In this document: one piece after another, positions 4,174 through 54,662 of the stretch
Layout: each line of letters starts with the position of its first letter
Numbering within the stretch: position 1 is the stretch's first letter
Source of the DNA: a virus
Lineage: Duplodnaviria; Caudoviricetes
Direction: 5' to 3' (one strand)
DNA length: 54,662 bases
Virus record (IMG/VR): IMGVR_UViG_3300043425_000063
Coordinates: 1-54,662 of that record
The notes under the pieces: model-generated
Databases searched by the model: none
What the model was told of the DNA's origin: nothing
What the model saw: only the letters and a program-made list of their open reading frames with translations
Translations under genes and position numbers: made by a program

Positions 4174-4176
4174 GAT

Positions 4177-4524
4177 TTATCCTTTCAATTGGGCAATGAG
4201 CGCATTGACGGTATTCCGCAACGCAGCCACATCATTTGCGAGAAGTTGAACATCGTTAATTAACTTTGCGTAATCGTCCAAACCAGCCACATTTTGCCCA
4301 CTAATAGTATACCCCTGTCCTGTCGCAGATACACGAGAAAATGTGGGGGCAGATGTCTGGTTGACGGTAAGTTGACCTTTGGTTACAGCCTTACTTTGTA
4401 GGTCAGCCTCACCACGAATACCTGCTAGAAGTTCGACGTTCTCCTTCAATGCCCGAAGAATCTGACCTTGCCACTCGGTCATGTTTCCTGTTGGTACAGA
4501 AGGTACGGCAGTAAATCTAGACAT
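4177..4524 (-). CDS. Putative tail needle/plug protein
   Basis: 115 aa with C-terminal coiled coil, directly after the nozzle gene. Confidence 0.45.
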   Translation of the reverse strand: MSRFTAVPSVPTGNMTEWQGQILRALKENVELLAGIRGEADLQSKAVTKGQLTVNQTSAPTFSRVSATGQGYTISGQNVAGLDDYAKLINDVQLLANDVAALRNTVNALIAQLKG

Positions 4525-7142: not shown

Positions 7143-7144
7143 GT

Positions 7145-7600
7145 CTATACCAGTTCAAAGTGTGGCCCGTCAATAAACGGACGCTTGTTTTGTTTGCGAC
7201 GCTCATCAATGTAGTAGTTCATGGCTTCTTCCATCGTGCCACGCCAGAGACGAATGTCGGGCACATTCCATGCAGCACCCCATCGAACAGCAACATTATT
7301 CTCAATCGCGGCTTGCTTCATTGCATCCGCAATATCATCGTACAAGTTAAGTTCCCAAGAAGCACGATTACCAAGAAACGCCATGAGGTCAACTGCACGC
7401 CCTTGAACATGCGTACCACCTTCCTCAATCTGACTGGCTCCCTGTGCAAACAACTCGCGTTGACGCGCAGCAGTACGTAGACCTTCTGTCACAGCAAAGT
7501 CCACCTTGGTGTACTTGATAGCCAGTAGAACGCACGCAACAAGGCGGTCATCAACCCCCTTGAGTTTGCTTAGGCTACGCTGTGATAGTTGAAAACTCAT
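7145..7600 (-). CDS. Endolysin, M15 family L-Ala-D-Glu peptidase-like
   Basis: EGLRT..RQ, HVQGRAVD, WGAAW, DGPHFEL zinc-peptidase motifs. Confidence 0.9.
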   Translation of the reverse strand: MSFQLSQRSLSKLKGVDDRLVACVLLAIKYTKVDFAVTEGLRTAARQRELFAQGASQIEEGGTHVQGRAVDLMAFLGNRASWELNLYDDIADAMKQAAIENNVAVRWGAAWNVPDIRLWRGTMEEAMNYYIDERRKQNKRPFIDGPHFELV

Positions 7601-7986
7601 TTCTTCAATACCTGTGCAATACCGGGCAGAACCTTCTCAGCACTACGACCAATGACGTAGCCACCGATACCTAGTTCAACAATGTCCCAAAGTTTGATGT
7701 ACTCGGCTTCAGATAAGTTAGGTGCGGCCCATCCAAACCAACGAGCAACAATCAATGCCCCGAAGGTCAACATTAAAATCGGACGCCAGTTCGCAGCCAA
7801 CCAGTGCTCACTTGCAGCCTCGGCTTTCACAATATCACCACGCACAGTCAACTCAGTAAGTTGCCCTTTCTGCGCCATTTCCATCAGCGCAAGTTTTGCT
7901 TGGTCTTTCTTTTCTTGGTCAGGCCACAGGCGGTCAATCAACTGACTGCCTATGTTGAGTACTGCGGTTAGCGGTTCTGCTGCCAT
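7597..7986 (-). CDS. Holin (GTA 3TM holin-like)
   Basis: LIDRLWPD..., WRP, two TM segments, GYVIGRSAEK; overlaps the endolysin start. Confidence 0.8.
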   Translation of the reverse strand: MAAEPLTAVLNIGSQLIDRLWPDQEKKDQAKLALMEMAQKGQLTELTVRGDIVKAEAASEHWLAANWRPILMLTFGALIVARWFGWAAPNLSEAEYIKLWDIVELGIGGYVIGRSAEKVLPGIAQVLKK

Positions 7987-7994
7987 ACAACCCC

Positions 7995-8279
7995 CTATTT
8001 ATCAGCCTTATGGTCAATCTTCTTGAACAGGAGACCCACCATATCCTCCAGTTTTGAGAAGCCATCCTTCATGTCTTGCTTCAACTCAGTCATGTCGTCC
8101 TTGACTCCCTTGATGGCTTCTTTGAAATCGTCTCGGCGTACAAAATCTTCGTGCATCTTGGAGTCAATCATTCGCAAGTCCTTTTTCAGTTCTTGGATAG
8201 CGTCCCAGATGATTTTTAGAATCCATCCGCCGCAAAAGCCAGCAATGGCAACCGCCCAGTTAAAAACCACCTGTTCCAT
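7995..8279 (-). CDS. Membrane-anchored coiled-coil protein (lysis cassette)
   Basis: N-terminal TM segment, then heptad coiled coil with FVRRDDF. Confidence 0.6.
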   Translation of the reverse strand: MEQVVFNWAVAIAGFCGGWILKIIWDAIQELKKDLRMIDSKMHEDFVRRDDFKEAIKGVKDDMTELKQDMKDGFSKLEDMVGLLFKKIDHKADK

Positions 8280-8300
8280 GATGCCCCTTTCATTACACTC

Positions 8301-8450
8301 TTATTTGGCTTTTTTCATGCACTTACCCATTGCCTTACACTTTGCAGCGTTCGGGCAACCAGCGCATGGTTTGAATGTCATACCGCCTTTGGCGTAACCC
8401 ATCATCTTCTTGGCGGGGGCTTTTTTAACACCGGGTTTCTTGTTCATCAT
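8301..8450 (-). CDS. 49-aa Lys-rich, 4-Cys peptide (below ORF-track cutoff)
   Basis: GGAG RBS; MMNKKPGVKKAPAKKMMGYAKGGMTFKPCAGCPNAAKCKAMGKCMKKAK; fills the gap between neighbours. Confidence 0.75.
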   Translation of the reverse strand: MMNKKPGVKKAPAKKMMGYAKGGMTFKPCAGCPNAAKCKAMGKCMKKAK

Positions 8451-8451
8451 G

Positions 8452-8631
8452 TCAAACTCCTTTGAGGATGATAGTTACAATGATGCCTGCCATACCAACT
8501 ATCAAAGTACCAGCAGACCCTACTAAAATCATTTCCATACGGTCAAGCCGCTTAACCAGCGTACCGTACCGCTCTGCGCTAATCACCTCATGGGTGATTA
8601 ACTTGGCTTCAAGTTCTTTGACCGTTGGCAT
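8452..8631 (-). CDS. Small coiled-coil/C-terminal TM protein (XhlA-like)
   Basis: AAGGAGG RBS before ATG 8631; HEVISAERY..RLDRME plus hydrophobic tail. Confidence 0.65.
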   Translation of the reverse strand: MPTVKELEAKLITHEVISAERYGTLVKRLDRMEMILVGSAGTLIVGMAGIIVTIILKGV

Positions 8632-8791
8632 TTTCAGCCTCCTTGACGGCTTGCGTCTGGTCGATAACAGGGGGTAATTCAGCCTCAACTAACTCAGGTT
8701 CAATAACCAACACGCACCCCTCAGGCACAGTTTCACAGCGCATTAACGAGCCGTTCGGAAACATAACGAGGGGCTGACGTTTATCAGACAT
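8609..8791 (-). CDS. Hypothetical protein
   Basis: 60 aa, overlaps both neighbours in operon fashion. Confidence 0.5.
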   Translation of the reverse strand: MSDKRQPLVMFPNGSLMRCETVPEGCVLVIEPELVEAELPPVIDQTQAVKEAENANGQRT

Positions 8792-9101
8792 TTGTGTTGG
8801 TCTCGTTTTGCATTGCTTGTGCTGTATCTAATGCCGCAGCAGCCGCAACAACTTCAGCATGGCGTTCGGCAGCAGTCTTTACCCAACCGCGTTGAAAGGC
8901 TAGTTCGACCATTGCATCTTTACTACTAGGAATTGCGGTGTTGGTTTCAAGGCATTTTTGTACAGTAACTGCAACAATTTCATCAATAGCAGCCGCACAA
9001 CGATGATGAACTGCGTGTTGAATCCAATCGTTCTGGCTAACCGCAGCAAACGACAACGCCATATCTTCAGCCGAAGAAAGCGTAATTTGATAATTAGACA
9101 T
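8784..9101 (-). CDS. Tail-fibre-associated protein (putative chaperone of fibre 2)
   Basis: AAGGA RBS; YQITLS.AED.AL...DWI..A..R...AIDEIV pattern seen next to aquatic phage fibres. Confidence 0.55.
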   Translation of the reverse strand: MSNYQITLSSAEDMALSFAAVSQNDWIQHAVHHRCAAAIDEIVAVTVQKCLETNTAIPSSKDAMVELAFQRGWVKTAAERHAEVVAAAAALDTAQAMQNETNTNV

Positions 9102-9116
9102 TTATGTTCCTTTCTT

Positions 9117-10049
9117 TTACCCGAGAAGATACCCACAAAAAAACCAGTACCCAGAATTTAAGTTTCCGTACTGCACATATATACGCGCTGTATCACTAGC
9201 AGCCATATCCATGACCACAGTTAACCCTACATGCTGGTAGTCGCTAACACCCCCATGATAGAAATACGCGCTTGGATATGCCCCACCATTTTTTTCAACC
9301 CAAAGATACGTACTGTTTCCAGCATATGTAAGCCCGCCGCAGTTGAATACATATTTACCAGCGACAGGAGCAGTAAAAGTACCTGTTGAATAATGACTGC
9401 CTACGTCATATACTTCGCTATCAAAGTTAAACACTGTGCCGGGGGTGTTAATTCTAGTATTTGCCCCCGTCCACTGTGCGTAAAAAGCAGGCTGCAACGC
9501 TTTTGTTACCCGTCCCGACCCATCAATTGCCATTAGGTTGGTTGTATTATTATTCCGAAAAGCCATACCGCCAGCACCGAGTTGGCGGATTTCCGAATAG
9601 TAAGTGCCATCATAAGCAAGCCGTAGTGAACGGTCTGCTTCACTAGAACTACTCTGTGCATGTAGCGCAGTAACCGGAGTCACACCAGAACCAACAGCCA
9701 ATTTACCTGTCAACGTACCACCAGTCAGTGGCAGATACTCGTTAGCATTTGCTTTTTCGTTGAACAGTGCAGCCGTTGGGCGCAACTCAAAACGGTCGTT
9801 GGTGCTGAAGGCTCGGGCTGTCGTGTTGTCTTGCGCACGCACGACCGTCATTGTGTCGGTCGAACGAGCCGTGACCTTGACAATCTCAAGATTGTTGGTT
9901 GTATCAATCAGCGTGGCGTAGAAGTAGTCACCAGCACTGAGCGTCGGGAACCGTGCACCCTCACCCGCATTAAGGACGATTGTGGTTGAACTGCTAGTGA
10001 TACCAGCGTTCAGTGTGCCAAAGGCGTTATTGGTGACTTTTAATCCCAT
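9117..10049 (-). CDS. Tail fibre/receptor-binding protein 2 with C1q-like tip
   Basis: N-terminal ~95 aa paralogous to 11021..12046; YLPLTGGTLTG; PAFYA..FD...GTFTAPVAGKYVF..FCGYLLG. Confidence 0.8.
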   Translation of the reverse strand: MGLKVTNNAFGTLNAGITSSSTTIVLNAGEGARFPTLSAGDYFYATLIDTTNNLEIVKVTARSTDTMTVVRAQDNTTARAFSTNDRFELRPTAALFNEKANANEYLPLTGGTLTGKLAVGSGVTPVTALHAQSSSSEADRSLRLAYDGTYYSEIRQLGAGGMAFRNNNTTNLMAIDGSGRVTKALQPAFYAQWTGANTRINTPGTVFNFDSEVYDVGSHYSTGTFTAPVAGKYVFNCGGLTYAGNSTYLWVEKNGGAYPSAYFYHGGVSDYQHVGLTVVMDMAASDTARIYVQYGNLNSGYWFFCGYLLG

Positions 10050-10071
10050 GTTTAACTCCAGTTAAGGGTAT

Positions 10072-10617
10072 TCATCGTGCTTCTACCCAGCCAGTGATGA
10101 TGTACTTATCACCTGACAGCGGCGGGTTTCCTCTGTGTACATGTGTAAACTGGCAAGGAAACACAACCATTGTTCCCTTTACCGGGGCTACCCGCAATGA
10201 CTGATATAGAAACTCTGTTTCCCCTCCTTGTTCAACAGTGTTCAAATAAATTGTCCACGCAAGTACGCGGCGAGTAAACGGTGCACCACCTGCCTCGCAA
10301 TGCCACTCATGGTAGCCCTCTGACATTTGCGTTTTTTGAAATCGCCAATCGGTGTAATCTAGTTTGAAGTGAGTAGTCCCACGAAAAGACGCTAAGTAGT
10401 CCTCAATTGAAACATTCAAACCACCACTCAAATGCTGCACTACTTGGTCAGCAACTTTTAAGTCGCTAACAGAAAAACCTTTATCTTCTTTGAATCGGTC
10501 ATTACGGGTAAACCCTAATCCATTAGCCATCATGGCTTCCCCCCACGAAACAAGTTCGTCGCACGCTTCATCAGAAAGCGCGTTAGGTTGGATACCAATA
10601 AACTGCGTAATGTTCAT
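10072..10617 (-). CDS. 2OG-Fe(II) oxygenase (prolyl-hydroxylase-like)
   Basis: WHCE, RVLAWTIYLN, GGETEF, HVHRG, KYIITGW. Confidence 0.9.
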   Translation of the reverse strand: MNITQFIGIQPNALSDEACDELVSWGEAMMANGLGFTRNDRFKEDKGFSVSDLKVADQVVQHLSGGLNVSIEDYLASFRGTTHFKLDYTDWRFQKTQMSEGYHEWHCEAGGAPFTRRVLAWTIYLNTVEQGGETEFLYQSLRVAPVKGTMVVFPCQFTHVHRGNPPLSGDKYIITGWVEAR

Positions 10618-19353: not shown

Positions 19354-19569
19354 TTAGGACTTTGCCGCTAGTTCAGGGGACTCTTTGGCGAGTTTGTACA
19401 ACTCACCCAAAACTTGGCATCGCCCCTGCATCAATGCCGCGTTGTTTACAGCGTGTGGAAGTTGCTCCAATTCGTGCGTACGCCAAGCAGCAATATATTC
19501 CAGAATCTCTGGATATTGCCGAACCGCAATGGCAAAAGCCTTTACAGTTTTGTCGTCAGGACGAATCAT
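19354..19569 (-). CDS. Small post-portal protein
   Basis: 71 aa with QGR motif; ATGA overlap with the portal gene. Confidence 0.65.
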   Translation of the reverse strand: MIRPDDKTVKAFAIAVRQYPEILEYIAAWRTHELEQLPHAVNNAALMQGRCQVLGELYKLAKESPELAAKS

Positions 19570-42093: not shown

Positions 42094-44958
42094 ATGGACA
42101 CGCTGAGTTTCTTTCAGCGGGTGCTACCGACAGAAGGACTGTACTGCATTGCGAGTTTTGAAGGCGACAACCCAAAACCACGACACGGCTACTTTGATTC
42201 AGTCGAAGCACTTGCTAAAGTTGCTCTTGCTCTAAATAGCAGGGGACAAAACACATACTACGCAATCTCTACGTTCACAGAGAAGCGTCGTAAGCAGGAG
42301 TTCGTCGAGCGCACGAAGGTGCTTGCCATCGACGTTGACTGCGGTATTGGTAAGAACGGAAAGCCTAAGCCGTTCAAGGATGCAAGCGAGGGAGCAAAGG
42401 CTCTCGTGACTTTCGTCCAAGCAGTTGGGCTACCCATGCCGATGATTGTATCGTCGGGCAATGGGCTACATGTTTACTGGATATTAGATGAGGCGATTGA
42501 GCCTGCACAGTGGAAGCCGTTAGCCAGTGCATTGAAGGCGGCTTGCCTTGATAAAGGATTCACACCCGACATTGGTGTTACGGGGGACAGTGCTCGTGTT
42601 CTGAGACCGATTGGATGTACTAACCCCCGTGGAGGAAAGACCGCTAAGTTGATACGAGATGCGCAGGATGTGACCTATGCGCAGTTGTGGGCAGTCCTCG
42701 AACCGTTTACACATGGCTCATCTTATGAGCCACCCGTTGAGCAGACACGTACCAACTCGTTGTTGGATAACCTAGCAGTCAAGCATGAGTACCAACCCGC
42801 AAACGCTGACAAGATTATTGAGTCCTGCCAACAGATTAAATGGGCAGTAGAGAATCAAGGGGATGTCCCCGAACCAATGTGGTACAACCTGATTGGAGTA
42901 GCCGCATTTTGTAGTGACCCTGAAGCCACTGCCATCAAGTGGTCTGAGCAACACCCCGGATACAGTCAACAAGCAACCATCAGTAAGTTGCACCATTGGA
43001 AGCAGGGCGCAACAGGCCCAGCAACCTGCCAAAAGTTTGAAGCCGAACACCCCGGTGGATGCAAGGGCTGCAAGTTCAAAGACAAGATTGGTAGCCCTGC
43101 CCGTCTAGGCACACAGTTCGCAGAAGTTAAATCAACGGCGGCAGTGACCGACCCCCTCGCTGCACAAATACCAGTACCCCGACCATTCAAACGTACCACT
43201 GACGGTATGAAGATGGTCATTGACGAAACCGATATTGACGTTTGTAAGTTCGACATCTACCCCATCGGCTACGGCAAAGATGAGGGTCTTGGTTATGAAG
43301 TAGTCCGCTACATGTGGCATCGTCCGCACGTTGGATGGACTGAACTTGTACTACGGCAGGCTCATCTTACTGATGGCAGTCGAGAGTTCTCAGGTGCGAT
43401 TGCTGACCAAGGCATCGTGTTGTTCAACAAAAATCAAACGGTACACTTCCAAATGCTTCTACGCTCATACATGGAGGAACTGAAGCAACGCCGAGGATTG
43501 ACCAACCTGTATTCGTCAATGGGTTGGAAAGCAAACTACAACGAGTTTGTGATTGGCAGTACGCTTCTCCGCCGGGACTCCACTGGCAACATCGCAACTG
43601 AAAACATTAACCTCGCTTCGGCAATCGGCAAGGTCACGGACGAGATGTATGGATGTCAGGGTTCCCTGCAAGAGTGGGTGAACTTCACCCGCATCCTCGA
43701 AACCGCAGACCTGAAACTCCACAAGTTCCTGATTGGCTTTGCCTTTGCTACACCACTGCTCAAGGTCAGCGGACTCAAGGGTTTGATTCTGTCCCTGTAC
43801 GGCAAGACTGGTGGCGGTAAGACGCTCGGTCAGTACATGATGCAGTCAGTGTGGGGCAATCCCGATACGCTCCACTTCGGTGGTAAGTTCACACAGAACG
43901 GTTTGTTCTCCCGCCTTGCACTACACGGCAACCTACCCATGACTGTGGACGAGTTGACTATGCTTGACCGTGAGGAAGCAGGCGACCTGATTTACTGGAC
44001 AAGTCAAGGGCGTGACAAGGCTAGGCTGAACCGCAACTCTGAGGAACGTGCCATTAAAGAGTGGGCAACCACCATGACGGTATCGACCAACGAATCGCTA
44101 CACAGTATGTTGTACGCAGGTGGTCATGCTACGGATGCTAAGTTAGCCCGACTGCTTGAGTTCAATGTTCACCCTCACCCACTGTTCACTAAAGGTAGTC
44201 AGGTAGGGCGACAGATTCATGCGTTTCTGATGGCGAACTACGGACACCCCGGACATGCGTTTATGCGGCAACTGCTGCCGCTTGGTGTCGATGCAATCAA
44301 AGCGATGTTGGAGCATGCCATCAATGAGTTCCCCAAGAAGTACGGCGTTCACTTTAGCGGCGACGAACGGTTTTGGGAGATTGGTTTGGTGCTATCTGAC
44401 CTCGGTAACCAACTTGCTAAAGAATACGGACTCATCCTATATGACCACCAAGACGCAACCGAGTGGGCACTGGGTGAACTGAAGTCCATGAAAACATCTG
44501 CGGCTACCAACCGTATGGATGCCTTCGATGCACTGGGCGAGTTCATCAACGAGAACATGGACGCAACTATCACGGTCATGCACACCCCGGGTCAGAAGCC
44601 TATGCGAGACAACAACCGTCCGTATATTGCAGACATCCTTGTACGCTACGACCTGTACCGCAAGACCTACGATGGGACATTCGATTCAGGCACGGTGCTT
44701 GTCGAGCGTACCAAACTACGCAAGTGGCTCAGTCAACGTGGCTATGACTACAAGCAATTTGTTCAGGAGTTTGAAGCCGAAGGCATCATTGCCACACCGA
44801 AATCACAGAAGGCGTACTTCGGTAAAGATGTTGGTATCAAAATTCCGCAGTGTTATGTAGTCGGCATCAACCTCAACCACCCACGTTTGCAGGGAATCTT
44901 GGATGACGCCGACCAATCCGTAAATGACCTAACCCACGGTCAACTCAAGGTCGTTTAA
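42094..44958 (+). CDS. Primase-helicase (AEP-type primase, PriCT-like region, DUF927-type helicase)
   Basis: DVD, SSGNGLHVYW, RVLR; Cys cluster; GKTGGGKT, VDE, STN, NYGH. Confidence 0.88.
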   Translation: MDTLSFFQRVLPTEGLYCIASFEGDNPKPRHGYFDSVEALAKVALALNSRGQNTYYAISTFTEKRRKQEFVERTKVLAIDVDCGIGKNGKPKPFKDASEGAKALVTFVQAVGLPMPMIVSSGNGLHVYWILDEAIEPAQWKPLASALKAACLDKGFTPDIGVTGDSARVLRPIGCTNPRGGKTAKLIRDAQDVTYAQLWAVLEPFTHGSSYEPPVEQTRTNSLLDNLAVKHEYQPANADKIIESCQQIKWAVENQGDVPEPMWYNLIGVAAFCSDPEATAIKWSEQHPGYSQQATISKLHHWKQGATGPATCQKFEAEHPGGCKGCKFKDKIGSPARLGTQFAEVKSTAAVTDPLAAQIPVPRPFKRTTDGMKMVIDETDIDVCKFDIYPIGYGKDEGLGYEVVRYMWHRPHVGWTELVLRQAHLTDGSREFSGAIADQGIVLFNKNQTVHFQMLLRSYMEELKQRRGLTNLYSSMGWKANYNEFVIGSTLLRRDSTGNIATENINLASAIGKVTDEMYGCQGSLQEWVNFTRILETADLKLHKFLIGFAFATPLLKVSGLKGLILSLYGKTGGGKTLGQYMMQSVWGNPDTLHFGGKFTQNGLFSRLALHGNLPMTVDELTMLDREEAGDLIYWTSQGRDKARLNRNSEERAIKEWATTMTVSTNESLHSMLYAGGHATDAKLARLLEFNVHPHPLFTKGSQVGRQIHAFLMANYGHPGHAFMRQLLPLGVDAIKAMLEHAINEFPKKYGVHFSGDERFWEIGLVLSDLGNQLAKEYGLILYDHQDATEWALGELKSMKTSAATNRMDAFDALGEFINENMDATITVMHTPGQKPMRDNNRPYIADILVRYDLYRKTYDGTFDSGTVLVERTKLRKWLSQRGYDYKQFVQEFEAEGIIATPKSQKAYFGKDVGIKIPQCYVVGINLNHPRLQGILDDADQSVNDLTHGQLKVV

Positions 44959-47900
44959 TCAGGGATGCCATTGAGTGTTTCTTCATCTACACCGTAGAGT
45001 CGAAGCATCTCTTTGGCTTCTGCCCGGCCTGACTTAGCGGAGGACTTGAGGCTACGTAGTGCCAGTGGCTTACGTGCTTCTTTGAACGCTTGGTTGACAG
45101 ACCTATCGAAGTTGCGAATCTCAAGGCGAGTACCCTTGGTGGATTCGTTCCAGTCTTTCACAAAGTCTTTGACGTTCTTCTCGGACTCAGGGTCACCTGA
45201 CAGTCTTGATGCAACCGCACGGCGTACAGCCTCAGTCTTAATCATGGACATATAGGCTTGTTCCTGTGAGTCTGCCATCATCCAATCCATCTGAGCCTGC
45301 GCACGGGATGGATACCATCCGAGTGCCTTACCCATAATCTCCCATGCCGTAGCGTTCTTTGCCACAACATATCCCTTGGAGTCGAGAATTGCACCAGTGT
45401 CTTGGAACTTCAAGGCTTCACCAAAGTTCTTGACCGCACGAACAGGCGCATCAGTCATAAGGCTAGATAGGCTTGAGCGACCAGTGACTACACCGGGGAT
45501 GGTGTTGGTAAAGTACTCAAGGCTACCCACGAGGAACGAGGTAGGTGCACCTGCAATGTTCACCACTTCACGGAGAAGTTCTTGCTTAGTGGCTGACGGT
45601 TTCAGTAGGCCCGTGCCGGGGACAATATCCCCAAGACCCAATCGGTTAGAGAATGACCAACCAGTGAAGTGGTCAAGCAAACCACGCATGATGATTGGGT
45701 TAATCTCAGCACCAAGTTCATCACCGAATACCGTGCGTGTCAGACGAGCAAACTCTTTTTCGATGGAGCCCATCTTTAGACCCAAGCGTTGAGCGATGCC
45801 GTCAACAACGTCCAAGATGTCGTCAGAACCCGGTAGTCCACGCACACCGGAGAGCAGAATCAATGACCCAAGCATGATGATGCGACCCTCGTAGTTCATG
45901 TTCTTCAACAATTGAACCATGAGAATCGGGTACTGCTTGTACATATAGATGAACGACTGGAGTCCACCACGGAAGAAAGCAGGGCGGTTGTACTGTGCGT
46001 AGTCACCTTGTGTGGCGTCCACGGCACGAGACGCAACTGCTCGGGCAGCGATGTCGGCTGCATTGTGGTCTACCCCAGAAGCGCGTTGGCGGTCATACTC
46101 ACCACGATATGCTGCTAGGAGAGTAGTACGGCGGTTGAACTGTTCCGAGTAGGAGAACGGAGCCATCCAAACCTTGACGAACTTTTGGAACGTAGGGTTA
46201 ACGAGGATGGCACGACCCCGACTTGTACCAGTCAAAGCGTTGAACTGGGCAGCATCAAGACGCTGCTCCTCAGTCATGGTGTACAGGAAGTTCAGTTCAG
46301 CAAACGTCAGACCATCTTTGTTGCGGTCTTTACCTGACTTCTGCAACTCCTTAATCTGTTGGTCGATGTAGTCGAGGTTGGCGTAGCGGAAACTACCTGC
46401 CTTCTTGGCGTACTCCAACAAGAGGTAGCCTGCACGACCTGCACCTAGCCCAACACCAAAGCCGTTCTTCGGATTGAACGAAGCAAGGTAAGCCCACGAG
46501 TTAGTCGGCAGCGAAAGCATCTGTGTGACACCCGTGGCGATAGAGCCACCGAGTTGAGCAAGAGCCGCCCATGTACGAGCAGCCACAGAGAACTCGTTGT
46601 TTGTCCAAATGTCATCCGCATGGATGATGTCGCCAGTGGATTCTTTCCAGTCGAGCAAAGACTTGGCACGTTCTTTGTACCAGTTGCCACGCTCTACCCG
46701 CTTACCATCCACCATCGTGACGGCATTGTCGTAGTAGAACTTCTCTTGGAAATACTCACGGGCTGCAATCTCTTTGGCAGGGCCAGTCGCACCTTCCCAC
46801 TTAGCCTTGAGTTCTTCAAGACGGGTAGGGTCGCCATACCAGTTACGGTTGTCCTCAAGAACTTCGTCGTACTGATGGCGGAACTCTTTGTTGGCTGCGG
46901 TGTAGGCTTGCTGCTCCAGATAGGCAGACGCACTCTTGACAACATCTTTGTCCCAGCCGGGTGTGCCTGCACGTTTCAGGTTTGCACGAGCACGAGTGTT
47001 CTGTGCCTGTGTTTTCTTGACAAGAATCTCCCGAGTTTGTGGGGTCAACTGAATACCAAGGCGAGACAAGGAATACATCACCTCGTCGTAGTGGAGGATG
47101 TCCACAAGCGCAGGGGTCTGCTCAGCCACGGAAGAAATTGCACGGAGTTTGACAGTCTGCAAGTTGTTGTCAACATCACGCATCTCGTACTCGCCTGCGA
47201 ACATGATGTCGAGTTCGTCTTGGAGTTCACGAGCATCTTTCTCGGTAGCGACCTTGCCATAGAACAGAGAGTCCTGCTGACCTTGGCGCAACTTGATAGG
47301 TACTTCCTGACCGTTGACTTCCTTGTAGGCTTGGATACGAACCTGCCAGTCACCCTCACGGATTAGCGGGACGTAAGAGCCAGCGATGGTTCGCTTGGCG
47401 TAGAACTGGTCATCATTGATAGACGCTGCAAACATGGTGCGTTCTTCGATGCGGCGCACCAATGCCCAAATGGAACTGTCGTTCACGTTGTCAAGGTCAG
47501 GGTCAACCTTGTTACGTAGTTTGTTCCGCAGGCCACGCACAAGCGTATCGACTTGCTCAGGGGTATACCCCTCAATCATTGTCTTTAGGTCGCCAAGGGC
47601 AAGGTCTTTATAGAACGAGCCACCAAACTTGTAGTTCAACCACTCGTCAGCATCTTCTTGTGCTGCCTCGCTCATGACGAAACGGTTGTTCTTGTACTCT
47701 GAATCTTTTAGGCGCATACGGTCGTATTGCTCGACCACATCTTTAATGAACTCTGTCTCTTGGGCAGTTAGACTCTCAGAGAACGCACTGGATATACCAG
47801 ACGTAACTGCTCGTTGCTGTTCGTGGATTGCGCCAAGATATTTACCGATGAGCACATCCACGGAGGATTTCGAGATGGCATCAAAGAACTCTAGGTAAAC

Positions 47901-50900
47901 CTTGTACTCGATGCTGTTACCCGTGTAGCGGATGATTCCGTTTTCATCTTCCTCAAGGGTTCCATCAACATCTTTGAACCAGTCCAATGAGGGCTGCATG
48001 TTCGGAGCCTCGTAGGTGGTCTCCGCCATACGCTTGGTATACGTCCGCTTGGTCATCTCAATGTTGCGGTCGTACTTGCTTTCGGTTTTCTTAAGACGCA
48101 ACTGGTACTCAAGACGGGCTTCCTCGTTCTGAGCCGTATCCAGTTTCTTTTGCAGACGAGCCATTTCACGAGCCTTGCCAGACTCAAGGGAAGCCAACTC
48201 AGCGTCACGCTGTGCAACCAGTTCAGCCTGATACTCAGGCGTCATTGGGCGTTCTTCAGTACCTTGTTGAACCATGAAGCCCTTACGGAACTCCTCAGGG
48301 GTAACCCTACCCATCTTCTTGAGTTCTTCAAAAGCCTCAGGGTTAATCTGCGGAGTGGGGTCTAGGTTGTTCGGGTCATAGAACACCACGTTCTGCATCT
48401 TCTGAATCTGATTGTCCGTGTACTGCCCCATCCGGCGCAACGTGGCATATGCCATGAGTTCACCGGAACGGACATTCTGTTCGGGAGTCAAACCACCACC
48501 AAAGCCCAAGAACTTAGCGTCATGGGCAATCTTAGTCATCTCAGCGTACTGAGTTTTCAGTTCAGTCTGACGAGCGGCTTGGTCTTGCAGGCGACTAAAG
48601 ATTTTGAAATATCCCTTGCTCTTACGGGCCATGTTGTCTTGCGTCTGGATTCCATCAAGAACTTTCTGTGTGACGTTACCCACGTTGGCAAGCACGCCCC
48701 TACCCTGCTTACGCATCTCGGCGGCTTTTTGTGAGGTGTTTACGATGTCACGGATAGAACGCTCAAGGTCACCGTAGATGGCAAAGTTACGGTTCGTAAA
48801 ATTCTGAGCAAAAAACGCAGAGCCTTGTGCCACAGATTGGGCAAAGCGCAACACTTCCATGTCGGACTTCTCGTTACCCAGTGCCTCAGTAATCTCCTTG
48901 AACATGCCAGAGGTGTTGACCTCGGAACGCCCAATGCCTTGACGCACGTACTTGCGTGATAGCCCAATCAGATAGCGAGCAGCGTCATCATTGAAGCGCA
49001 AGCCCATCTTATTGAGTTGGTCTTTCAACCAGTTCCAAAAGCGCAGGATAGTGTTGTTGTCGATGGCAGCAGCACGGTCAGCCAGTACTTCTTCAACGGC
49101 TTCGAGAAAGGGTATACCCTTACCATTCGCATAGACCGTGGCTTCTTGTGTCAGTTGCGGGTCAGAGTCAGCGATGAAGCGCAGAATCTTGTCGAGGGCT
49201 TGGCTGCTAAACAATCCACGGAAGCCAACGTGCCCAAGAGTTTCGTGGGCAATGATGAACCGAGCGTGTTCTTCCGAGTGGATGAAGTCGGCAAACAGTA
49301 CTACGTTGTCGCCCCATGCCATACCAGCAGCGTTGACTGCTTCAATGTCGCCATTCTTACGTGCCTTAGCGGCAGCCTCGAACAAAGTAGGATTACTCCT
49401 ACGCATATCTTGTATGTTGGCAAACACGCTTACACGCGGCTTACGAGCGTACTTGGAAATCACACGGGCTGCAAACAAGCGCAGTGGGCCGACCTTCATT
49501 GGATTCAGAGGCTTACCGTCCGCACGATAGGCACGCCAGTCGTCGTCGCTGTTGGGTTTACGGTCATAGAACGGGTCGAACTGGAGGTCATCCAGTGTCG
49601 TTTGATTCTCAGTTTCTTCAAGGTCACGCAGTTCTTTACGTGCTGCCTCATGCTTTTGCACAAAGTCAGTCTTGGTTGTTTTCTCCTCAGCCACCGTGTT
49701 GGGGATGAAGTAGGATGTGCCCGCAGGCTGAGTCACATAGGGATTACCCTTAGCATCAAAGAAGTCTTTGATAAGCCCACGCTTACCAACGAGGAAGTTG
49801 TCATCGACTACACCAGCGTAGTACTTCTTCAACTTGTCAATAAGTTGTGCTTTGTCATAGTACTGTGGGTTCGAGTCAATAAAGTTTGCCAAGCGTTCTT
49901 CGGCACTGATGTCCTCGTTGACTGCAACCACATCATCCTTAACCGCTTCTTGTGTGGTTTTAGCCCCGGGCACACGCACCTTCGCCATGACATTGGCATC
50001 GTTCAACAAGCCAGTGTCGGCAAGTAGGGCGTACAAACGGGACTTCGGAGAAATGGATTCTTGGTCGAGCGCAACTTCACGCAGCGCATCGGTGTAATCT
50101 ATCTTAGATACACCACCCTCAGGGTCTGTCAAGAAGTTGGCAGCAGTCTTACGCAAGTAGGTACGGTCTGCCCCAAAGACATAAGCCGACACAATATCGT
50201 ACAGAGCCTCTGCGTAAGCAGCAGCGTTCTTGGTTGTCTCAGCAGTCTCGATAGCCATATCGAGTTCTTCGTTTGCAGCCACAGTCTCAGCACTTGCTTC
50301 CTGTGCACCACGCTTAACAGGTTGGCTTTCCACAACCGCAGGCTGTGTAGTCGTACCCATAAGTTGCCCGACCATTGCAGCAAGACCGCTAGGGCCACGT
50401 TGCAACTTAGCACCTGCGGGGGCTGCGGCCTTACCTGCCGCTTCAATCTTTTTTGCTGGGGCTTTCTTTAGAGCCTTACCCCCCTTAGGTGGGGGCGGAG
50501 GTGGTTCCTCCGTAGGCGTTACGGCTTCTTGCTTCTTCCCGCGCTTGAGAGACTTGCCGCCACCGCCTGCTTCAGTGCCGCCGCCTTGCTCTTGGGTCGT
50601 GGGCTGTTGCCCAGTTTGCCGCCCGCCTTGTACTCCCGCATTATCTTGCTGACGTTTTGGCTGACGACCTTGTTGCTGCTTCCTTTCTTGAGGGGCATTT
50701 GCTTCTCCTTGTGGTTCGGGTTGAACGAAGTCGCCTTCATCAAACTGTCCATCGAACACCGTACCGTCTACGTCCTCAAAACGACCAGTGCCATGCGGCA
50801 GACCGTCCTTGAACTGACCAGTGTAGGTGGATGTGTCAGAGTAAATCAGCGTACCTTGACCGCTAGGTACGCCCTTCTTGAGTTGGCCTGTATATACAGA

Positions 50901-53270
50901 ACCATCCTCGAAGTTCAACGTACCAGACTTCTGTTTCTTGAGTGCTTCGCCTCGTGCAGCCTGTGAAGTAACGGCAGTGACTGGCGCACCAGTCGGAGGA
51001 ATCTGAGCCGCACCTTGTTCAACAGTCGGAACAACTTGTTGCGGTGCAGCAGCACTACGCAAAGCAGCCACGGTAGGCTGACCTTGCTGAGTAAACATCG
51101 CCATCTGTGGTGAACTACGCAAGTCAACCCGTGGAGTAACTGGAGCACCAGTAGGGGCAGGCAACTGAGTACCCACACCACGGCGCAAACCTTCTGCACG
51201 AGAAGGACGAGGAGCCTCACGACGACTAAACAATTCCAGTTGTTGCGGTGCACGTACAGGCAGCGGCTTTGTAGGAAGTTGTTGTGGTGTCTGTTGCTGT
51301 TGTGCGGCCCGCTGTTCTTGCAACGCTGCTTGTTGGGCAATTTCCAACTGACGCTGTGCTTGAGCAAGGTTGTTCATCCGAGCAAGGTCTGCCTCACGTT
51401 GGGCTGCTTGTTCGGCTTGCATACGCTCCTGAGCCTGACGACTTTGCGCCAAGTTCATTTGCTGCTGCATGATAGGGTTAACCACAGGGGCGGCTTGGTC
51501 GGTAAAGCCAACACCACCCGGTGCAGGTGGCGCAAACTGGAGAGCCAACTGATTAGGGTCAGGGGTTAGATTCGGAGGGCCAACTTGAGCCGCTAGTTCT
51601 TGAGGAGTGACATCTCGGAATGATTGAGTAGTGACATCCCACACCTGTTGTGGACGCACATTGCCTTGCATGCTGCGAGCCTTGGCTTCAGCAACGGGAA
51701 TACCACCGAGGTCAAGCACACCTTGTGCACCACCGAACTGGTTGGGTTGTACCTCACCTGTGTAGATACGGTCACCCGGAGTAGAGCGACGGACACCTTC
51801 TGCGCCAGCCACAAAGTCAGGGCGTGCACCCATACCACCAGCAGGGGTCGGGCCACCGACAGGAGTGATTTCAACAGACTCGGAGGTGGGTGGTGGGACT
51901 TGCTGATTACCTTTAAGAAGGTCAGTTTCGTTGCGACCAATCGGGCCACGGCGAAGGTTTGCACCTGCACCAAGTACACCGCCGACACCAAAGCCAGCAG
52001 CAAAAGATTCGAGAAGGCGTTTGCGAACATCGGCATCACCAAAGTCCTGTCCAGTCATGCCAACCAGCAGGCTTTCCTGTCCGAGTTCAGTTGCGCCCTC
52101 AGCAGTACCACCAACAATCAACCCTTTGCCGCCTCGCTTGAGCAGTTCTGCACCACGAAGTCCTTGCGTCCCCAAGAAAGTCTTACCTTGGATGTCTTGG
52201 AGATTCGTTGCTCCACCTCTAGCGGACAGACCACCACGACCAAACAGACGGGATGCAAGTAAAAATTCAGGGAGGGATTCAAGGACGGCATAGGGAACTG
52301 CGCCAGACAAAGCGGCAAGACGAGCGTTGGCGTCATCGGCTCCTACTCCTTGTTCACGGAACTCCCCATAAATATCAGCAGCACCAGTGGCATAGTTCTG
52401 TGCCACGCTGGTAATGGTTGCGCCTGCAATACCAGCCGCTTCACGCAGCAGTTTGGTTTCGGCAGCATCAAGGACTTCACCTGCCGCACGTTTTTTTAGG
52501 GCAGCAAGTACGGATTGTTTGAAAGTTTCTTTACCCGCGAGTGATGCCAAGGACACACCTGCACCTGCAAGTGGGCCACCAGCGGCAGAACCAGCAAAAA
52601 AGCCTGCGGCAGCAGTACCGACAGACTCAAGAATATTTGGGCCTTGTTGGGCAACCGTTGCAGCCAACCACTCAATCGCACCACGGGTGGAGTCAATGTC
52701 ACTGAACTCACGACGGTAGGGCAAATTCTTACGCAAGTCCTCCATCTGTTGGTCAACAATACCCTGACCAATCTGCTCAGCACCAGCAAGTTGTAATCCA
52801 CGACCAGCAAGCAGTTGTAACTGGTCAACGCCAATACCGAAGTTCTTGGACATAAGACGCCCAAGACTCGGATTACGGATTGTGTTGGCTAGTTGCCCGT
52901 AGGACTCAGGAGTTAAAGCAATCCAGTCACCACCTTGAGGTAGCCCCACAGAAGGTTGTCCAAGTAATTGCTCGGCACGCAGGGTCATATCGGCGTCGTC
53001 CTCTGCGAACGTCACGCCTTGTACAAACAACTCTTTCTTTGACGGGCTATATGCAATCGCAGGTGGTTTCTTCATCTGCGGCATTTCAAACTGCGTAGCC
53101 CGCTGACCCATTGCGCCAATGGTAGCGATGTCGGCTAGACCTCTCTGAAGTGCATCAGCCCCACTAGACGCAGCAGGGTTTAGAAAGGTGTAGCCACTCA
53201 TGTCACTGGCAATCGAGCCGCCAGAATCCGCATACAGAGGATTTTCAAATGATGTGGCTTTAGTTGCCAT
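44955..53270 (-). CDS. Giant polyvalent internal virion/ejection protein (2771 aa)
   Basis: Gly/Ala hydrophobic N-part, Q/P linker, MORN repeats, HETLGH...EE zincin motif, YVPLIREG (PLxRFG-like), helical C-terminus; last gene of the late arm. Confidence 0.85.
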   Translation of the reverse strand: MATKATSFENPLYADSGGSIASDMSGYTFLNPAASSGADALQRGLADIATIGAMGQRATQFEMPQMKKPPAIAYSPSKKELFVQGVTFAEDDADMTLRAEQLLGQPSVGLPQGGDWIALTPESYGQLANTIRNPSLGRLMSKNFGIGVDQLQLLAGRGLQLAGAEQIGQGIVDQQMEDLRKNLPYRREFSDIDSTRGAIEWLAATVAQQGPNILESVGTAAAGFFAGSAAGGPLAGAGVSLASLAGKETFKQSVLAALKKRAAGEVLDAAETKLLREAAGIAGATITSVAQNYATGAADIYGEFREQGVGADDANARLAALSGAVPYAVLESLPEFLLASRLFGRGGLSARGGATNLQDIQGKTFLGTQGLRGAELLKRGGKGLIVGGTAEGATELGQESLLVGMTGQDFGDADVRKRLLESFAAGFGVGGVLGAGANLRRGPIGRNETDLLKGNQQVPPPTSESVEITPVGGPTPAGGMGARPDFVAGAEGVRRSTPGDRIYTGEVQPNQFGGAQGVLDLGGIPVAEAKARSMQGNVRPQQVWDVTTQSFRDVTPQELAAQVGPPNLTPDPNQLALQFAPPAPGGVGFTDQAAPVVNPIMQQQMNLAQSRQAQERMQAEQAAQREADLARMNNLAQAQRQLEIAQQAALQEQRAAQQQQTPQQLPTKPLPVRAPQQLELFSRREAPRPSRAEGLRRGVGTQLPAPTGAPVTPRVDLRSSPQMAMFTQQGQPTVAALRSAAAPQQVVPTVEQGAAQIPPTGAPVTAVTSQAARGEALKKQKSGTLNFEDGSVYTGQLKKGVPSGQGTLIYSDTSTYTGQFKDGLPHGTGRFEDVDGTVFDGQFDEGDFVQPEPQGEANAPQERKQQQGRQPKRQQDNAGVQGGRQTGQQPTTQEQGGGTEAGGGGKSLKRGKKQEAVTPTEEPPPPPPKGGKALKKAPAKKIEAAGKAAAPAGAKLQRGPSGLAAMVGQLMGTTTQPAVVESQPVKRGAQEASAETVAANEELDMAIETAETTKNAAAYAEALYDIVSAYVFGADRTYLRKTAANFLTDPEGGVSKIDYTDALREVALDQESISPKSRLYALLADTGLLNDANVMAKVRVPGAKTTQEAVKDDVVAVNEDISAEERLANFIDSNPQYYDKAQLIDKLKKYYAGVVDDNFLVGKRGLIKDFFDAKGNPYVTQPAGTSYFIPNTVAEEKTTKTDFVQKHEAARKELRDLEETENQTTLDDLQFDPFYDRKPNSDDDWRAYRADGKPLNPMKVGPLRLFAARVISKYARKPRVSVFANIQDMRRSNPTLFEAAAKARKNGDIEAVNAAGMAWGDNVVLFADFIHSEEHARFIIAHETLGHVGFRGLFSSQALDKILRFIADSDPQLTQEATVYANGKGIPFLEAVEEVLADRAAAIDNNTILRFWNWLKDQLNKMGLRFNDDAARYLIGLSRKYVRQGIGRSEVNTSGMFKEITEALGNEKSDMEVLRFAQSVAQGSAFFAQNFTNRNFAIYGDLERSIRDIVNTSQKAAEMRKQGRGVLANVGNVTQKVLDGIQTQDNMARKSKGYFKIFSRLQDQAARQTELKTQYAEMTKIAHDAKFLGFGGGLTPEQNVRSGELMAYATLRRMGQYTDNQIQKMQNVVFYDPNNLDPTPQINPEAFEELKKMGRVTPEEFRKGFMVQQGTEERPMTPEYQAELVAQRDAELASLESGKAREMARLQKKLDTAQNEEARLEYQLRLKKTESKYDRNIEMTKRTYTKRMAETTYEAPNMQPSLDWFKDVDGTLEEDENGIIRYTGNSIEYKVYLEFFDAISKSSVDVLIGKYLGAIHEQQRAVTSGISSAFSESLTAQETEFIKDVVEQYDRMRLKDSEYKNNRFVMSEAAQEDADEWLNYKFGGSFYKDLALGDLKTMIEGYTPEQVDTLVRGLRNKLRNKVDPDLDNVNDSSIWALVRRIEERTMFAASINDDQFYAKRTIAGSYVPLIREGDWQVRIQAYKEVNGQEVPIKLRQGQQDSLFYGKVATEKDARELQDELDIMFAGEYEMRDVDNNLQTVKLRAISSVAEQTPALVDILHYDEVMYSLSRLGIQLTPQTREILVKKTQAQNTRARANLKRAGTPGWDKDVVKSASAYLEQQAYTAANKEFRHQYDEVLEDNRNWYGDPTRLEELKAKWEGATGPAKEIAAREYFQEKFYYDNAVTMVDGKRVERGNWYKERAKSLLDWKESTGDIIHADDIWTNNEFSVAARTWAALAQLGGSIATGVTQMLSLPTNSWAYLASFNPKNGFGVGLGAGRAGYLLLEYAKKAGSFRYANLDYIDQQIKELQKSGKDRNKDGLTFAELNFLYTMTEEQRLDAAQFNALTGTSRGRAILVNPTFQKFVKVWMAPFSYSEQFNRRTTLLAAYRGEYDRQRASGVDHNAADIAARAVASRAVDATQGDYAQYNRPAFFRGGLQSFIYMYKQYPILMVQLLKNMNYEGRIIMLGSLILLSGVRGLPGSDDILDVVDGIAQRLGLKMGSIEKEFARLTRTVFGDELGAEINPIIMRGLLDHFTGWSFSNRLGLGDIVPGTGLLKPSATKQELLREVVNIAGAPTSFLVGSLEYFTNTIPGVVTGRSSLSSLMTDAPVRAVKNFGEALKFQDTGAILDSKGYVVAKNATAWEIMGKALGWYPSRAQAQMDWMMADSQEQAYMSMIKTEAVRRAVASRLSGDPESEKNVKDFVKDWNESTKGTRLEIRNFDRSVNQAFKEARKPLALRSLKSSAKSGRAEAKEMLRLYGVDEETLNGIPD
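50519..50698 (-). CDS. Nested out-of-frame gene: 59-aa basic MPLKKG-type protein
   Basis: AAGGAG RBS 6 nt before ATG; MPLKKGSSNKVVSQNVSKIMREYKAGG...KQAVAASLSSAGRSKKP. Confidence 0.7.
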   Translation of the reverse strand: MPLKKGSSNKVVSQNVSKIMREYKAGGKLGNSPRPKSKAAALKQAVAASLSSAGRSKKP

Positions 53271-53278
53271 AATTCACC

Positions 53279-54662
53279 TTACCTAACTTCTTGTTGAGGA
53301 GTATTGACAATGCTCCAAATACTCCTATCGACTCCGGCAACACGCTGTGCTCGCGGGCCAACATCGAGTTTGACCCCGTTGACTTCAACCTGATTGTTGA
53401 GAGTATCGACCACAAAAATATCGCCAAGACCATTGCTGTAAGTTACTTTACCATCCGAAGCACCCGTAGCGACAGCCTTAAAGCCAGCCAGTTTGAGTTT
53501 TTCTTCAGCAAGTTTAGTATTGCCTTTGATAACTTCGAGTTGGATTTCACGAGCAGTTTGAAGAACTTGTTTACTGGCTTCTTCTTCCCTACGCAGACCA
53601 GACTTAAATGCTTCTGTACCGCGCTCGGCTTGAATAGTTGCGAGTTGTTTGCGGTACTCAGCATCCACTTGTGTCTTAACGAGTAGTTCAATTTGCTTTC
53701 CGTCCAAACCAGCCTTAGCCACTTTACCGTTGATATACAAATCGAAGTTCCCATCAGGGCGTTGTAAGACTTGATGCGGTGCACCAGTAAACGTCGAGAG
53801 TACAGATAGGGCACGGCTGTAATTACCAGTCGTGGCTCCTTCATACACACCGATGTCGGCTTGGTTCTTGTATAGACCCATGTCAAGGGCTTGAATCTTG
53901 GCAGCAGCCTCAATAGCCTTATCGCCCATACCATACTGATTAAACAAAGTTACTTGGCGTTGCAAGATTGCACGCTGTTGTAGGGTCTGTTGAATCAGCG
54001 GATTGCGAGCAGACGGGTCAAGCGTAGCCGAGCCGTACATCGTGCCACCCTCAGCAGGCTTAACAATATTGGCGGCTGCATTGGCAACTTGTGTAGGTGT
54101 CCCGGTCTGTACAGCGGTGTTGAGCGTAGCCACAGGGTTCGTAGCAGCAGCCGCAGCAGGCGCACGAGGTGGCGTTGCAGAAGCAACTGCGGTAAGCGGA
54201 GTATCTTTGTTGAACCCAAGAGCAATACCGTTATCAAGAGTACGCATGTCGTACGGCTGTTTACCATTCTCTTTCTGAATGATGGCGGTAATCAACTGCT
54301 TCATAACCGCAGGGTCTTGTACGTTGATAACGTCCGTAGCCTTAACACCCAACGCCGTAGAGACATCTTTGATGTATGCACCAGTGAGGTTTCTATCAGA
54401 CTCAGGAGCCCAGCGACTGATAATGCCTTGAACAGTATTGATACCTTGCTGGTTGTAACTCAGCAAGTTCAGCGTCATTGCACGGATACCAGCCTCAGGT
54501 GAGGAGAACTGAACAAAGCCAGCAGCCTCTTTTGACCCTTTGTCGATACCCACTTGACCTTGCCATGTGTACTGATTGCTTGGGCGAATGTTGCCGGGGT
54601 TGTTGTTAGCAAGACCACGTACTGGTTTACCCTTAGCATCTAACTGCCAATCAGCATAACCT
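53279..54662 (-). CDS. 3' part of the junction-spanning ~743-aa ejection protein with lysozyme-like domain
   Basis: NNPGNIR..F.SPEAGIRA..IISRWAP..YI..V..ENG. Confidence 0.85.
   Translation of the reverse strand, partial: GYADWQLDAKGKPVRGLANNNPGNIRPSNQYTWQGQVGIDKGSKEAAGFVQFSSPEAGIRAMTLNLLSYNQQGINTVQGIISRWAPESDRNLTGAYIKDVSTALGVKATDVINVQDPAVMKQLITAIIQKENGKQPYDMRTLDNGIALGFNKDTPLTAVASATPPRAPAAAAATNPVATLNTAVQTGTPTQVANAAANIVKPAEGGTMYGSATLDPSARNPLIQQTLQQRAILQRQVTLFNQYGMGDKAIEAAAKIQALDMGLYKNQADIGVYEGATTGNYSRALSVLSTFTGAPHQVLQRPDGNFDLYINGKVAKAGLDGKQIELLVKTQVDAEYRKQLATIQAERGTEAFKSGLRREEEASKQVLQTAREIQLEVIKGNTKLAEEKLKLAGFKAVATGASDGKVTYSNGLGDIFVVDTLNNQVEVNGVKLDVGPRAQRVAGVDRSIWSIVNTPQQEVR
54471..54662. repeat. 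Terminal overlap, right copy
   Basis: Matches 1-192 with one mismatch. Confidence 0.95.

Follow-up and report, generated by a model that had tools for sequence, protein, structure and literature searches.

A probable small basic-protein gene nested inside the giant virion-module gene of a Caudoviricetes virus

Can the same bases of a phage genome encode a conserved small protein in one reading frame and an unconstrained linker of a giant protein in another? The question is raised by IMG/VR record IMGVR_UViG_3300043425_000063 (Duplodnaviria; Caudoviricetes), the whole of which (54,662 bases, estimated to be 99% complete) is the window analysed here. A giant gene on its minus strand (44955–53270; 8,316 nt, 2,771 amino acids [aa]) contains, on the same strand and in another frame, a 59-codon open reading frame (ORF) with start signals of its own. 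A sequence-only reading of this DNA had proposed that a complete small gene, ribosome-binding site included, was absorbed there into a disordered linker without breaking the frame of its host and is still translated. We consider it highly probable that positions 50698–50519 (minus strand) are a functional, independently initiated nested gene in a giant virion-module gene; that the small frame is translated we infer from the selection acting on it.

Anatomy and relatives of the nested ORF

Read base by base from the minus strand of 50480–50800, the anatomy that had been described proved exact: a Shine-Dalgarno (SD)-like AAGGAG (50705–50710, minus strand) is followed by the 6-nt spacer aagcaa, an ATG (50698–50696), 59 sense codons and a TAA (50521–50519), and the encoded peptide agrees with that of the first reading letter for letter. 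The strand, which had been left unsaid, is minus. The distance between the two starts (53270 − 50698 = 2,572 = 3 × 857 + 1) places the small ORF in the +1 frame of the giant ORF, and the two form a nested gene pair by definition, the small ORF lying entirely within a larger ORF of the same strand, in another frame and with its own start signals. In the giant frame the same bases (50520–50699, minus strand; giant aa 858–917) read QGEANAPQERKQQQGRQ..., a low-complexity linker rich in Q, G, K and T directly after the MORN repeats of the giant protein, again as had been claimed. An alternative in-frame ATG at 50752 would give a 77-aa version of the small protein, the extension of which is not conserved in relatives. 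No sigma-70-like site was found upstream of the nested start, the sole one found being inside the ORF.

The start signals recur in relatives. In all 10 nested copies compared (within relatives, the nine copies found by peptide search were examined for this feature), an SD-like motif (AAGGAG, AGGGAG, AAAGGA or AGGAGG) stands 6 to 8 nt before an ATG or GTG, and the ORF ends in TAA or TAG. Start and stop are kept, and the small frame is free of internal stops, in the nine peptide-found copies and in 11 nested copies found independently through the N terminus of the giant protein. Between the more distant genomes the flanks of the nested ORF cannot be aligned, unlike the start signals and the ORF itself. 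Across the window, AGGAG-N5-9-ATG was observed 29 times against 7.1 expected, mostly at real gene starts; on the coding strand within the giant gene it occurs twice, and the nested ORF is one of the two. The other occurrence (AGGAGTAGGAGCCGATG; 52118–52350, minus strand) opens a 72-aa ORF in the +1 frame (52336–52118) that has in-frame stops in four of the six matching relatives, no PHROG match and no local trough in synonymous variation. It is a chance ORF and serves as a useful negative control.

An open alternative frame is by itself no evidence beyond chance, because the giant gene holds nine other same-strand alternative-frame ORFs of 72 to 150 aa. These, together with the second SD-ATG, are what can be said for a chance frame with a chance SD motif, as is often met in GC-rich genes. 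However, none of the nine control ORFs matches a PHROG at E ≤ 0.01, and the nested peptide matches phrog_2423 at E = 5 × 10⁻⁸ (33.8 bits), its residues 1–22 aligning with positions 1–22 of the 52 in the profile. The match is limited to these N-terminal residues, the nested copy of a distant locus (L020) gives the same result, and phrog_2423 is a family of unknown function. With at least 333 relatives and the selection described below, chance is already refuted and retains a probability close to nil.

The relatives were found by a peptide-word scan of viral contigs, which gave at least 599 pattern matches, at least 333 of them encoding a relative, and the best 80 were analysed. The stand-alone homologues that had been predicted make up most of these: 71 of the 80 loci have no long overlapping ORF, and nine (L001–L007, L020 and L021) are nested in another frame of same-strand ORFs of 5.6 to 8.2 kb, two of which are cut by contig ends. 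By tblastn the 71 stand-alone loci are 47 to 60% identical to the nested peptide over residues 1–57/59. A profile built from 37 members retrieved 2,190 cluster representatives at E ≤ 10⁻³ and 224 at E ≤ 10⁻¹⁰ among 1.84 billion, and the motif begins at residue 1 in nearly all of the proteins found (∼55 to 320 aa; 150 stand-alone representatives listed). In a full-length alignment with 36 relatives, MPLKKGSS, K10, N15, A45 and A47 are invariant. Stand-alone members are mostly 79 to 94 aa long with a C-terminal extension that the nested copies lack, and the nested subfamily has a signature of its own (SPRPKSK... and AASLSSAGRS). As the family is far wider than the nested arrangement, the small gene would predate the nesting, and “absorbed”, the direction originally proposed, is the parsimonious one on present sequence comparisons.

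Family assignment beyond phrog_2423 did not succeed. Membership of DUF6496 (PF20106) was rejected, the peptide scoring 16.4 bits against a gathering cut-off of 24 (E = 0.012), and the match is a lead only; one of the 37 family members matches DUF6496 at E ≤ 0.01, and 17% of the members of the nearest ESM Atlas cluster carry it. Among GenBank phages, tblastn with the 59-aa peptide, blastn with the surrounding 2 kb and tblastn with a nested peptide from an AT-rich genome gave no match, and a 45-aa peptide of the second family described below gave one partial match, an annotated hypothetical protein of Prochlorococcus phage P-RSP2. As this was all that the GenBank phage searches returned, no annotated cultured example of the nesting was found.

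To our knowledge, standard prokaryotic gene callers forbid long same-strand overlaps. The expectation that they would miss this gene was partly right, with the qualification that five near-identical proteins of 59 to 74 aa are already in public protein sets. An entire class of conserved phage proteins may therefore be under-called in genomes with an intact giant gene (9 of the best 80 loci of this family and 49 of the best 80 of the second are nested).

Could ribosomes reach the small frame by programmed frameshifting, without an independent start? In one version, a +1 shift from the giant frame would give a truncated N-terminal product with a basic peptide tail; in another, translation would start at the ATG and shift by −1 into the giant frame, fusing the peptide to the C-terminal two thirds of the giant protein. 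It is in keeping with this that the motif of the second family heads longer proteins (123 to 425 aa) in seven of 80 loci, such modules being able to head larger proteins, that some nested ORFs end in A-rich lysine runs, and that the frame relation of small ORF to giant is always the same. The constant relation is also expected without frameshifting, because ORF-for-ORF replacement gives the same frame automatically. Against a shift stand the start codon and SD motif shared by all nested first-family copies, the position of the family N terminus at residue 1 in nearly all of the listed stand-alone representatives, and the end of the window ORF (...AGC AAG AAG CCG TAA), where no slippery heptamer is conserved. 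Furthermore, many nested copies have a small-frame stop 0 to 6 codons before the ATG (TAA directly before it in L120 and L121), so that the conserved MP... start could not come from ribosomes that had shifted out of the giant frame. We regard frameshifting as unlikely, and independent initiation at the internal ATG as the reading to be carried forward.

Selection on the two overlapping frames

If the small frame is translated independently, substitutions between nested copies should respect its codons, and the frame-specific comparison that had been suggested as a check came out in this direction. Across eight nested copies, variable columns at small-frame codon positions 1, 2 and 3 number 15, 14 and 32 of 54, respectively, and several changes at the first two positions are AGC↔TCN switches between codons for Ser. 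Pooled Nei-Gojobori (NG86) ratios of nonsynonymous to synonymous proportional differences (pN/pS) in these copies were 0.30 for the small frame, 1.86 for the giant frame and 1.51 for the third frame; in seven sequences found only through the giant N terminus they were 0.23, 2.05 and 3.18, respectively.

The giant frame presents the reverse picture at the slot occupied by the nested ORF. Against seven relatives, its N- and C-terminal parts have pS of 0.60 to 0.78 and pN/pS of 0.19 to 0.68, values that mark the giant as a real gene under purifying selection, whereas at the slot pS falls to 0.01 to 0.18 and pN/pS rises to 1.3 to 7.4. When pS was scanned along the giant gene (549 windows of 30 codons; median, 0.66), the sole deep trough (0.02 to 0.32) lay at aa 836–925, around the nested ORF (aa 858–917), and the slot was the only run of windows with pS <0.3. 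A scan for suppressed synonymous variation picked out exactly this element in an 8.3-kb gene, and such scans could be applied across viral metagenomes.

Openness of the giant frame is preserved as well. The giant-equivalent frame contains no stop in any of the nine nested copies, against 1 to 20 stops in every one of the 71 stand-alone homologues. A stop in the giant frame requires a small-gene codon ending in T followed by AA, AG or GA, and for this reason a synonymous change at the third position of the small-gene codon is always available to remove it. This explanation from the genetic code is simple and testable. With a small-frame pN/pS of 0.23 to 0.30 and a stop-free giant frame, both frames are kept by selection; to judge from these substitution patterns, the comparison shows that across 180 bases two frames are maintained, with selection preserving the protein sequence in the small frame and nothing but openness in the giant frame.

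Suppressed synonymous variation in the giant frame is an effect that any overlapping functional element could cause, and the conserved unit might instead be a nucleic-acid element (an RNA structure, a packaging signal or a regulatory site) or a giant-protein peptide under constraint, with the +1 frame incidental. The giant-frame peptide is not conserved, as the pN/pS values at the slot indicate. For a nucleic-acid element, variation would not be expected to be periodic in the small frame, nor homology to stand-alone genes to extend over all 59 residues; RNA around the nested start folds no better than shuffled sequences (z = +1.0); and in some genomes an unrelated ORF replaces the segment, which a sequence-specific cis element would not tolerate. 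Explanations of this kind are extremely improbable.

Conservation might also reflect a short time or horizontal exchange, if the small ORF were recently captured or transferred and silent here. The peptide is 83 to 96% identical between genomes whose giant proteins are only 35 to 62% identical, and the slot has clearly been exchanged by recombination; from these two observations, horizontal spread of the cassette is real. However, nested copies differ at up to 23% of nucleotides, with small-frame pS of up to ∼0.5 to 0.9 in single pairs, and their differences are concentrated at small-frame third positions and include the switches between Ser codon families. These changes arose in the nested state, since all of the copies compared are nested and the nearest stand-alone relatives are ≤60% identical. 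The small gene occurs once in the window genome, and the SD-bearing 72-aa ORF at 52336–52118, which is non-functional, decays among relatives. A silent recent arrival is very unlikely, and a maintained, translated nested gene accounts for the pattern better.

Exchange of the slot and a second nested family

A search with the first 600 residues of the giant protein found 15 loci at 60 to 85% identity, and all 15 carry a nested ORF at the slot. Eleven of these are of the MPLKKG family (one locus is cut by a contig end) and four are unrelated. The four (L085, L086, L090 and L094) show no match to the MPLKKG peptide even at E ≤ 10; at the slot they have another ORF of 45 codons (MPFKSQAQRKYLYANEP..., MPFKSQAQR type), in the same +1 frame and with its own SD motif. 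Comparison of an MPLKKG locus (L087) with a locus of the 45-aa type (L094) locates the boundaries of the exchange: over 600 nt on each side, 26 to 30 of 30 positions per bin are identical, and identity collapses exactly between ATGCC and AAGTAAC, i.e., from the start codon to the stop codon of the small ORF. On these alignments the small gene is shown to be the unit of recombination. Homology between the two cassette families was rejected (hhalign probability, 2.2%); an MP[LF]K start and a lysine-rich end are all that they have in common.

The second family is itself widespread. At least 478 relatives occur in viral contigs; the best 80 loci comprise 49 nested ones, with host ORFs of 2.3 to 9.9 kb, and 31 non-nested ones, mostly stand-alone genes of 40 to 63 aa. 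Throughout the 49 nested loci the frame relation is constant, with giant codons beginning 1 nt ahead of small-gene codons. In seven of the non-nested loci (L119, L132, L137, L146, L148, L149 and L170), the MPFKSQAQR motif forms the N terminus of the 123- to 425-aa proteins mentioned above.

The codon for Phe3 illustrates how the giant frame would be kept open. Among 75 distinct ORF sequences, it is TTC in 45 of 45 nested copies, 23 of 23 of those from contigs with a GC fraction <0.42, against 14 of 30 non-nested ones; with TTT in its place, a following AAR codon would complete a TAA in the giant frame, a stop that TTC avoids. The giant-equivalent frame is open in 45/45 nested copies (by definition) and in 2/30 non-nested ones, and the other alternative frame is open in 8/45. 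With codons of the search pattern excluded, small-frame pN/pS was 0.39 in a set of 14 sequences and 0.28 in a set of 21, and giant-frame pN/pS was 1.46 and 1.41.

The 47 nesting giants of this family fall into four BLAST clusters of 22, 21, 2 and 2. The earlier proposal that such nesting may be a general feature of large polyvalent proteins is upheld in a modified form, i.e., a second, unrelated family nested in giants of four clusters. The small ORF lies at 0.19 to 0.44 of the giant length, and at 0.66 to 0.73 in the pair L101/L102. The host ORFs of this pair are shorter (1,425 to 1,571 aa, against 2,000 to 3,300 aa with the nested ORF at about 0.3), and what follows the slot in other giants may here be a separate gene. 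In L147, a 2,604-aa homologue of the giants from AT-rich genomes (2184–10186) has no nested ORF, and an MPFK-type gene begins 2 nt after its stop; the association of small gene and giant therefore holds even without nesting. A tblastn search with the 47 giants found no split form (N-terminal gene, small gene, C-terminal gene) among 102 non-nested loci, where giant homology was confined to L147, in which an entire giant precedes the small gene, and to a short segment of L039.

Taken together, these observations favour, with moderate confidence, a conserved slot ∼30% into the giant virion-module genes of several large, mostly uncultured phage groups, both GC rich and AT rich. A free-standing small basic-protein gene would have come to be read as the linker of the giant, unrelated genes with an MP[LF]K start and a lysine-rich end would be swapped ORF for ORF by recombination, and synonymous codon choice in the small gene would keep the giant frame open. 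In the window, ribosomes would initiate independently at the internal SD motif and ATG on the late mRNA of the giant gene and would make a strongly basic, two-helix protein of 59 residues belonging to the widespread phrog_2423 family. Ribosomes translating the giant gene would read the same 180 bases one base out of register as a low-complexity linker, free of sequence constraint, between the N-terminal third, which ends in the MORN repeats, and the C-terminal two thirds, which end in a PLxRFG domain. Dual coding would work because the giant frame needs only the absence of stops. The small gene would be the older unit and the linker reading the derived one, and the slot would act as a cassette in which an unrelated small basic ORF can replace the resident one from ATG to stop with the giant frame undisturbed.

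If this is correct, it describes a new route to overlapping genes, in which a linker is newly made out of an existing, older gene instead of a new ORF being born within one. The locus is a natural example, and a well-supported one, of an overlap whose young and unconstrained reading belongs to the outer rather than the inner frame. It also shows that an overlap can be modular, an unrelated ORF replacing the nested one while the host gene stays intact.

The small protein, known systems and the giant host gene

What might the small protein do? The nested product has a predicted mass of 6.1 kDa and a pI of 11.3, with 14 K+R and one D+E, and AlphaFold2, run on the 37-sequence alignment, predicts two helices (residues 9–24 and 38–53) at a predicted local distance difference test score (pLDDT) of 74. 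A number of stand-alone MPLKKG genes (L013, L018, L019, L022, L029, L030, L036, L055, L057, L067, L069 and others) start at, or a few bases from, the stop of an upstream ORF of 630 to 913 aa. Five upstream neighbours were tested, of which three are portal proteins and two gave no match; of five downstream neighbours, two match a “GroES” PHROG, one is a large terminase and two gave no match. Both of the downstream ORFs of ∼155 aa that were tested match the “GroES” PHROG. Small basic proteins whose genes lie beside the portal gene or among those of internal proteins, such as gp6.7 and gp7.3 of phage T7 and the internal proteins of T4, form part of the virion and exit it together with the DNA. 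By this analogy, the small protein could be a basic protein of the head or ejection module that is produced alongside the giant protein, a suggestion that we make tentatively. If the slot is the cassette proposed above, it would mark a functional partnership between small proteins and a giant ejected protein. Two families of tiny, very basic proteins of unknown function are in any case tied to giant virion-module proteins, mostly by nesting and in L147 by a position directly downstream, and to the portal neighbourhood. In the window itself, a 71-aa ORF (19354–19569, minus strand; MIRPDDKTVK...) follows directly after the portal gene, where MPLKKG genes stand in other phages; it is unrelated to the nested peptide.

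Several points weigh against a functional nested gene with this history and role. Sampling of the locus sets L001–L080 and L097–L176 relied on exact peptide words and is biased towards conservation of the words used; this bias is offset by the set found through the giant N terminus and by the exclusion of search-pattern codons. The pooled pairwise pN/pS values count shared history many times and carry no significance test. Neither fold nor family annotation supports a function: a Foldseek search of BFVD with the AlphaFold2 model gave no match at E ≤ 0.001, a two-helix hairpin being, as a model, too simple to be informative, DUF6496 is sub-threshold and phrog_2423 carries no functional annotation. 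The portal neighbourhood rests on the five neighbours tested, including the two without a match. Without a split form, capture by fusion is indistinguishable, from these sequences, from insertion into an existing linker. Finally, the nearest cultured relative of the giant that was examined, gp62 of Pseudomonas phage Epa33 (11.4 kb), has no MP[LF]K ORF with an SD motif in its alternative frames, and the arrangement is not universal.

Nested overlapping genes are a known kind. The closest architectural parallel is provided by the Rz/Rz1 spanin genes of phage lambda and by T7 18.5/18.7, in which a late gene fully encloses a shorter same-strand gene that is read in the +1 frame from a start codon of its own; one late mRNA yields both proteins, and both are functional. 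The Rz1 protein, however, is a lipoprotein that carries a signal sequence and a lipobox Cys. A Rz1-type outer spanin (o-spanin) was ruled out for the window peptide, which has no Cys, hydrophobic segment or signal sequence. Unlike the spanin pair, the window has an 8.3-kb virion-module gene, not a lysis gene, as host; its nested family is mostly stand-alone (71/80), the host-frame linker is unconstrained and the nested ORF is exchangeable.

Overprinting in viruses, as a published review (PMC8227390) defines it, is the birth of a new ORF inside an older gene. The likeness is that two frames of one strand share the same bases and that one reading is young and of low complexity; the difference, in concept a reversal, is that here the nested ORF would be the older and widespread one and the reading of the enclosing frame derived and unconstrained. 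What is unusual in this locus is the old guest in a young host reading, the exchangeability of the guest and its wide distribution in giant phage genes. Literature searches found no case of cassette replacement within a gene overlap and, supplements apart, no account of ORFs nested within phage genes of the giant, polyvalent or PLxRFG kinds. The main text of the work on large polyvalent proteins (Iyer et al. 2017, PMC5512222), supplements apart, contains neither “overlap” nor “frameshift” among its terms, and its sole passage with “reading frame” concerns neighbouring cassettes, not nested ones.

The designation of the giant as a polyvalent protein applies to a distant relative rather than to the window. 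The giant of L020, the nested copy of which is 60% identical to that of the window, carries the Pfam domain LPD38 (E = 2 × 10⁻³⁴), a likeness to the large polyvalent proteins. No such LPD domain was found in the window giant, MORN being the only Pfam match at E ≤ 1; it belongs instead to the NCBIfam family “PLxRFG domain-containing protein” (NF032893; 148 bits against a cut-off of 100). Three other nesting giants (L141, L120 and L101) gave no NCBIfam match, and four giants of other clusters gave no Pfam match.

The PLxRFG domain occupies the C-terminal part of the window giant (aa 2316–2733; 45072–46325, minus strand) and also matches phrog_11358 (E = 5.9 × 10⁻³⁹). This region is 24 to 28% identical to giants of 40 GenBank phages, 37 of them Pseudomonas phages, including “structural protein” genes of Hollowayvirus; their product names include “structural protein”, “PLxRFG domain-containing protein”, “DarB-like antirestriction protein” and “putative internal virion polymerase”. 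The likeness of the window giant to Epa33 gp62 (“structural protein 5”), one of these PLxRFG giants, lies in this domain; the difference is the nested ORF with SD motif that gp62 lacks. Within the domain, aa 2516–2550 (45623–45727, minus strand) are the only other stretch with pS <0.35 (0.32 to 0.34, against the median of 0.66), which may simply reflect strong codon or amino-acid constraint.

Overall, the giant protein is 35 to 85% identical to those of its relatives, and wherever the contig of a relative extends to the slot, the giant frame runs through it without a stop. The MORN repeats (aa 778–846; 50733–50939, minus strand) immediately precede the nested gene and are supported by Pfam PF02493 (E = 3.4 × 10⁻⁹; best stretch, aa 816–838), by phrog_7324 over aa 778–846 and by MORN chains in the PDB, which align to aa 777–850. 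In giants of the L092/L004 type, this block is missing as one gap of ∼75 aa and the nested gene is still present. On such alignments, the region around the slot is indel prone.

Upstream of the giant, a gene with a transglycosylase domain of the internal-virion or ejection type (53279–54553, minus strand) matches phrog_873 (E = 6 × 10⁻³⁹) and phrog_7182, “tail injection transglycosylase” (E = 4 × 10⁻¹⁸), and its frame is open to the record end. Further along the same strand are an “internal virion protein” (phrog_511), the portal gene and the large terminase gene. The giant is thus the last gene of the virion module, and its product presumably is an ejected protein. At the ends of the record, one minus-strand ORF (1040–3) runs off the record start and another (54661–53279) is open at the record end. 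The two ends probably cut a single gene of ∼800 aa with the transglycosylase in its C-terminal part; if so, the record is a permuted or circularised genome.

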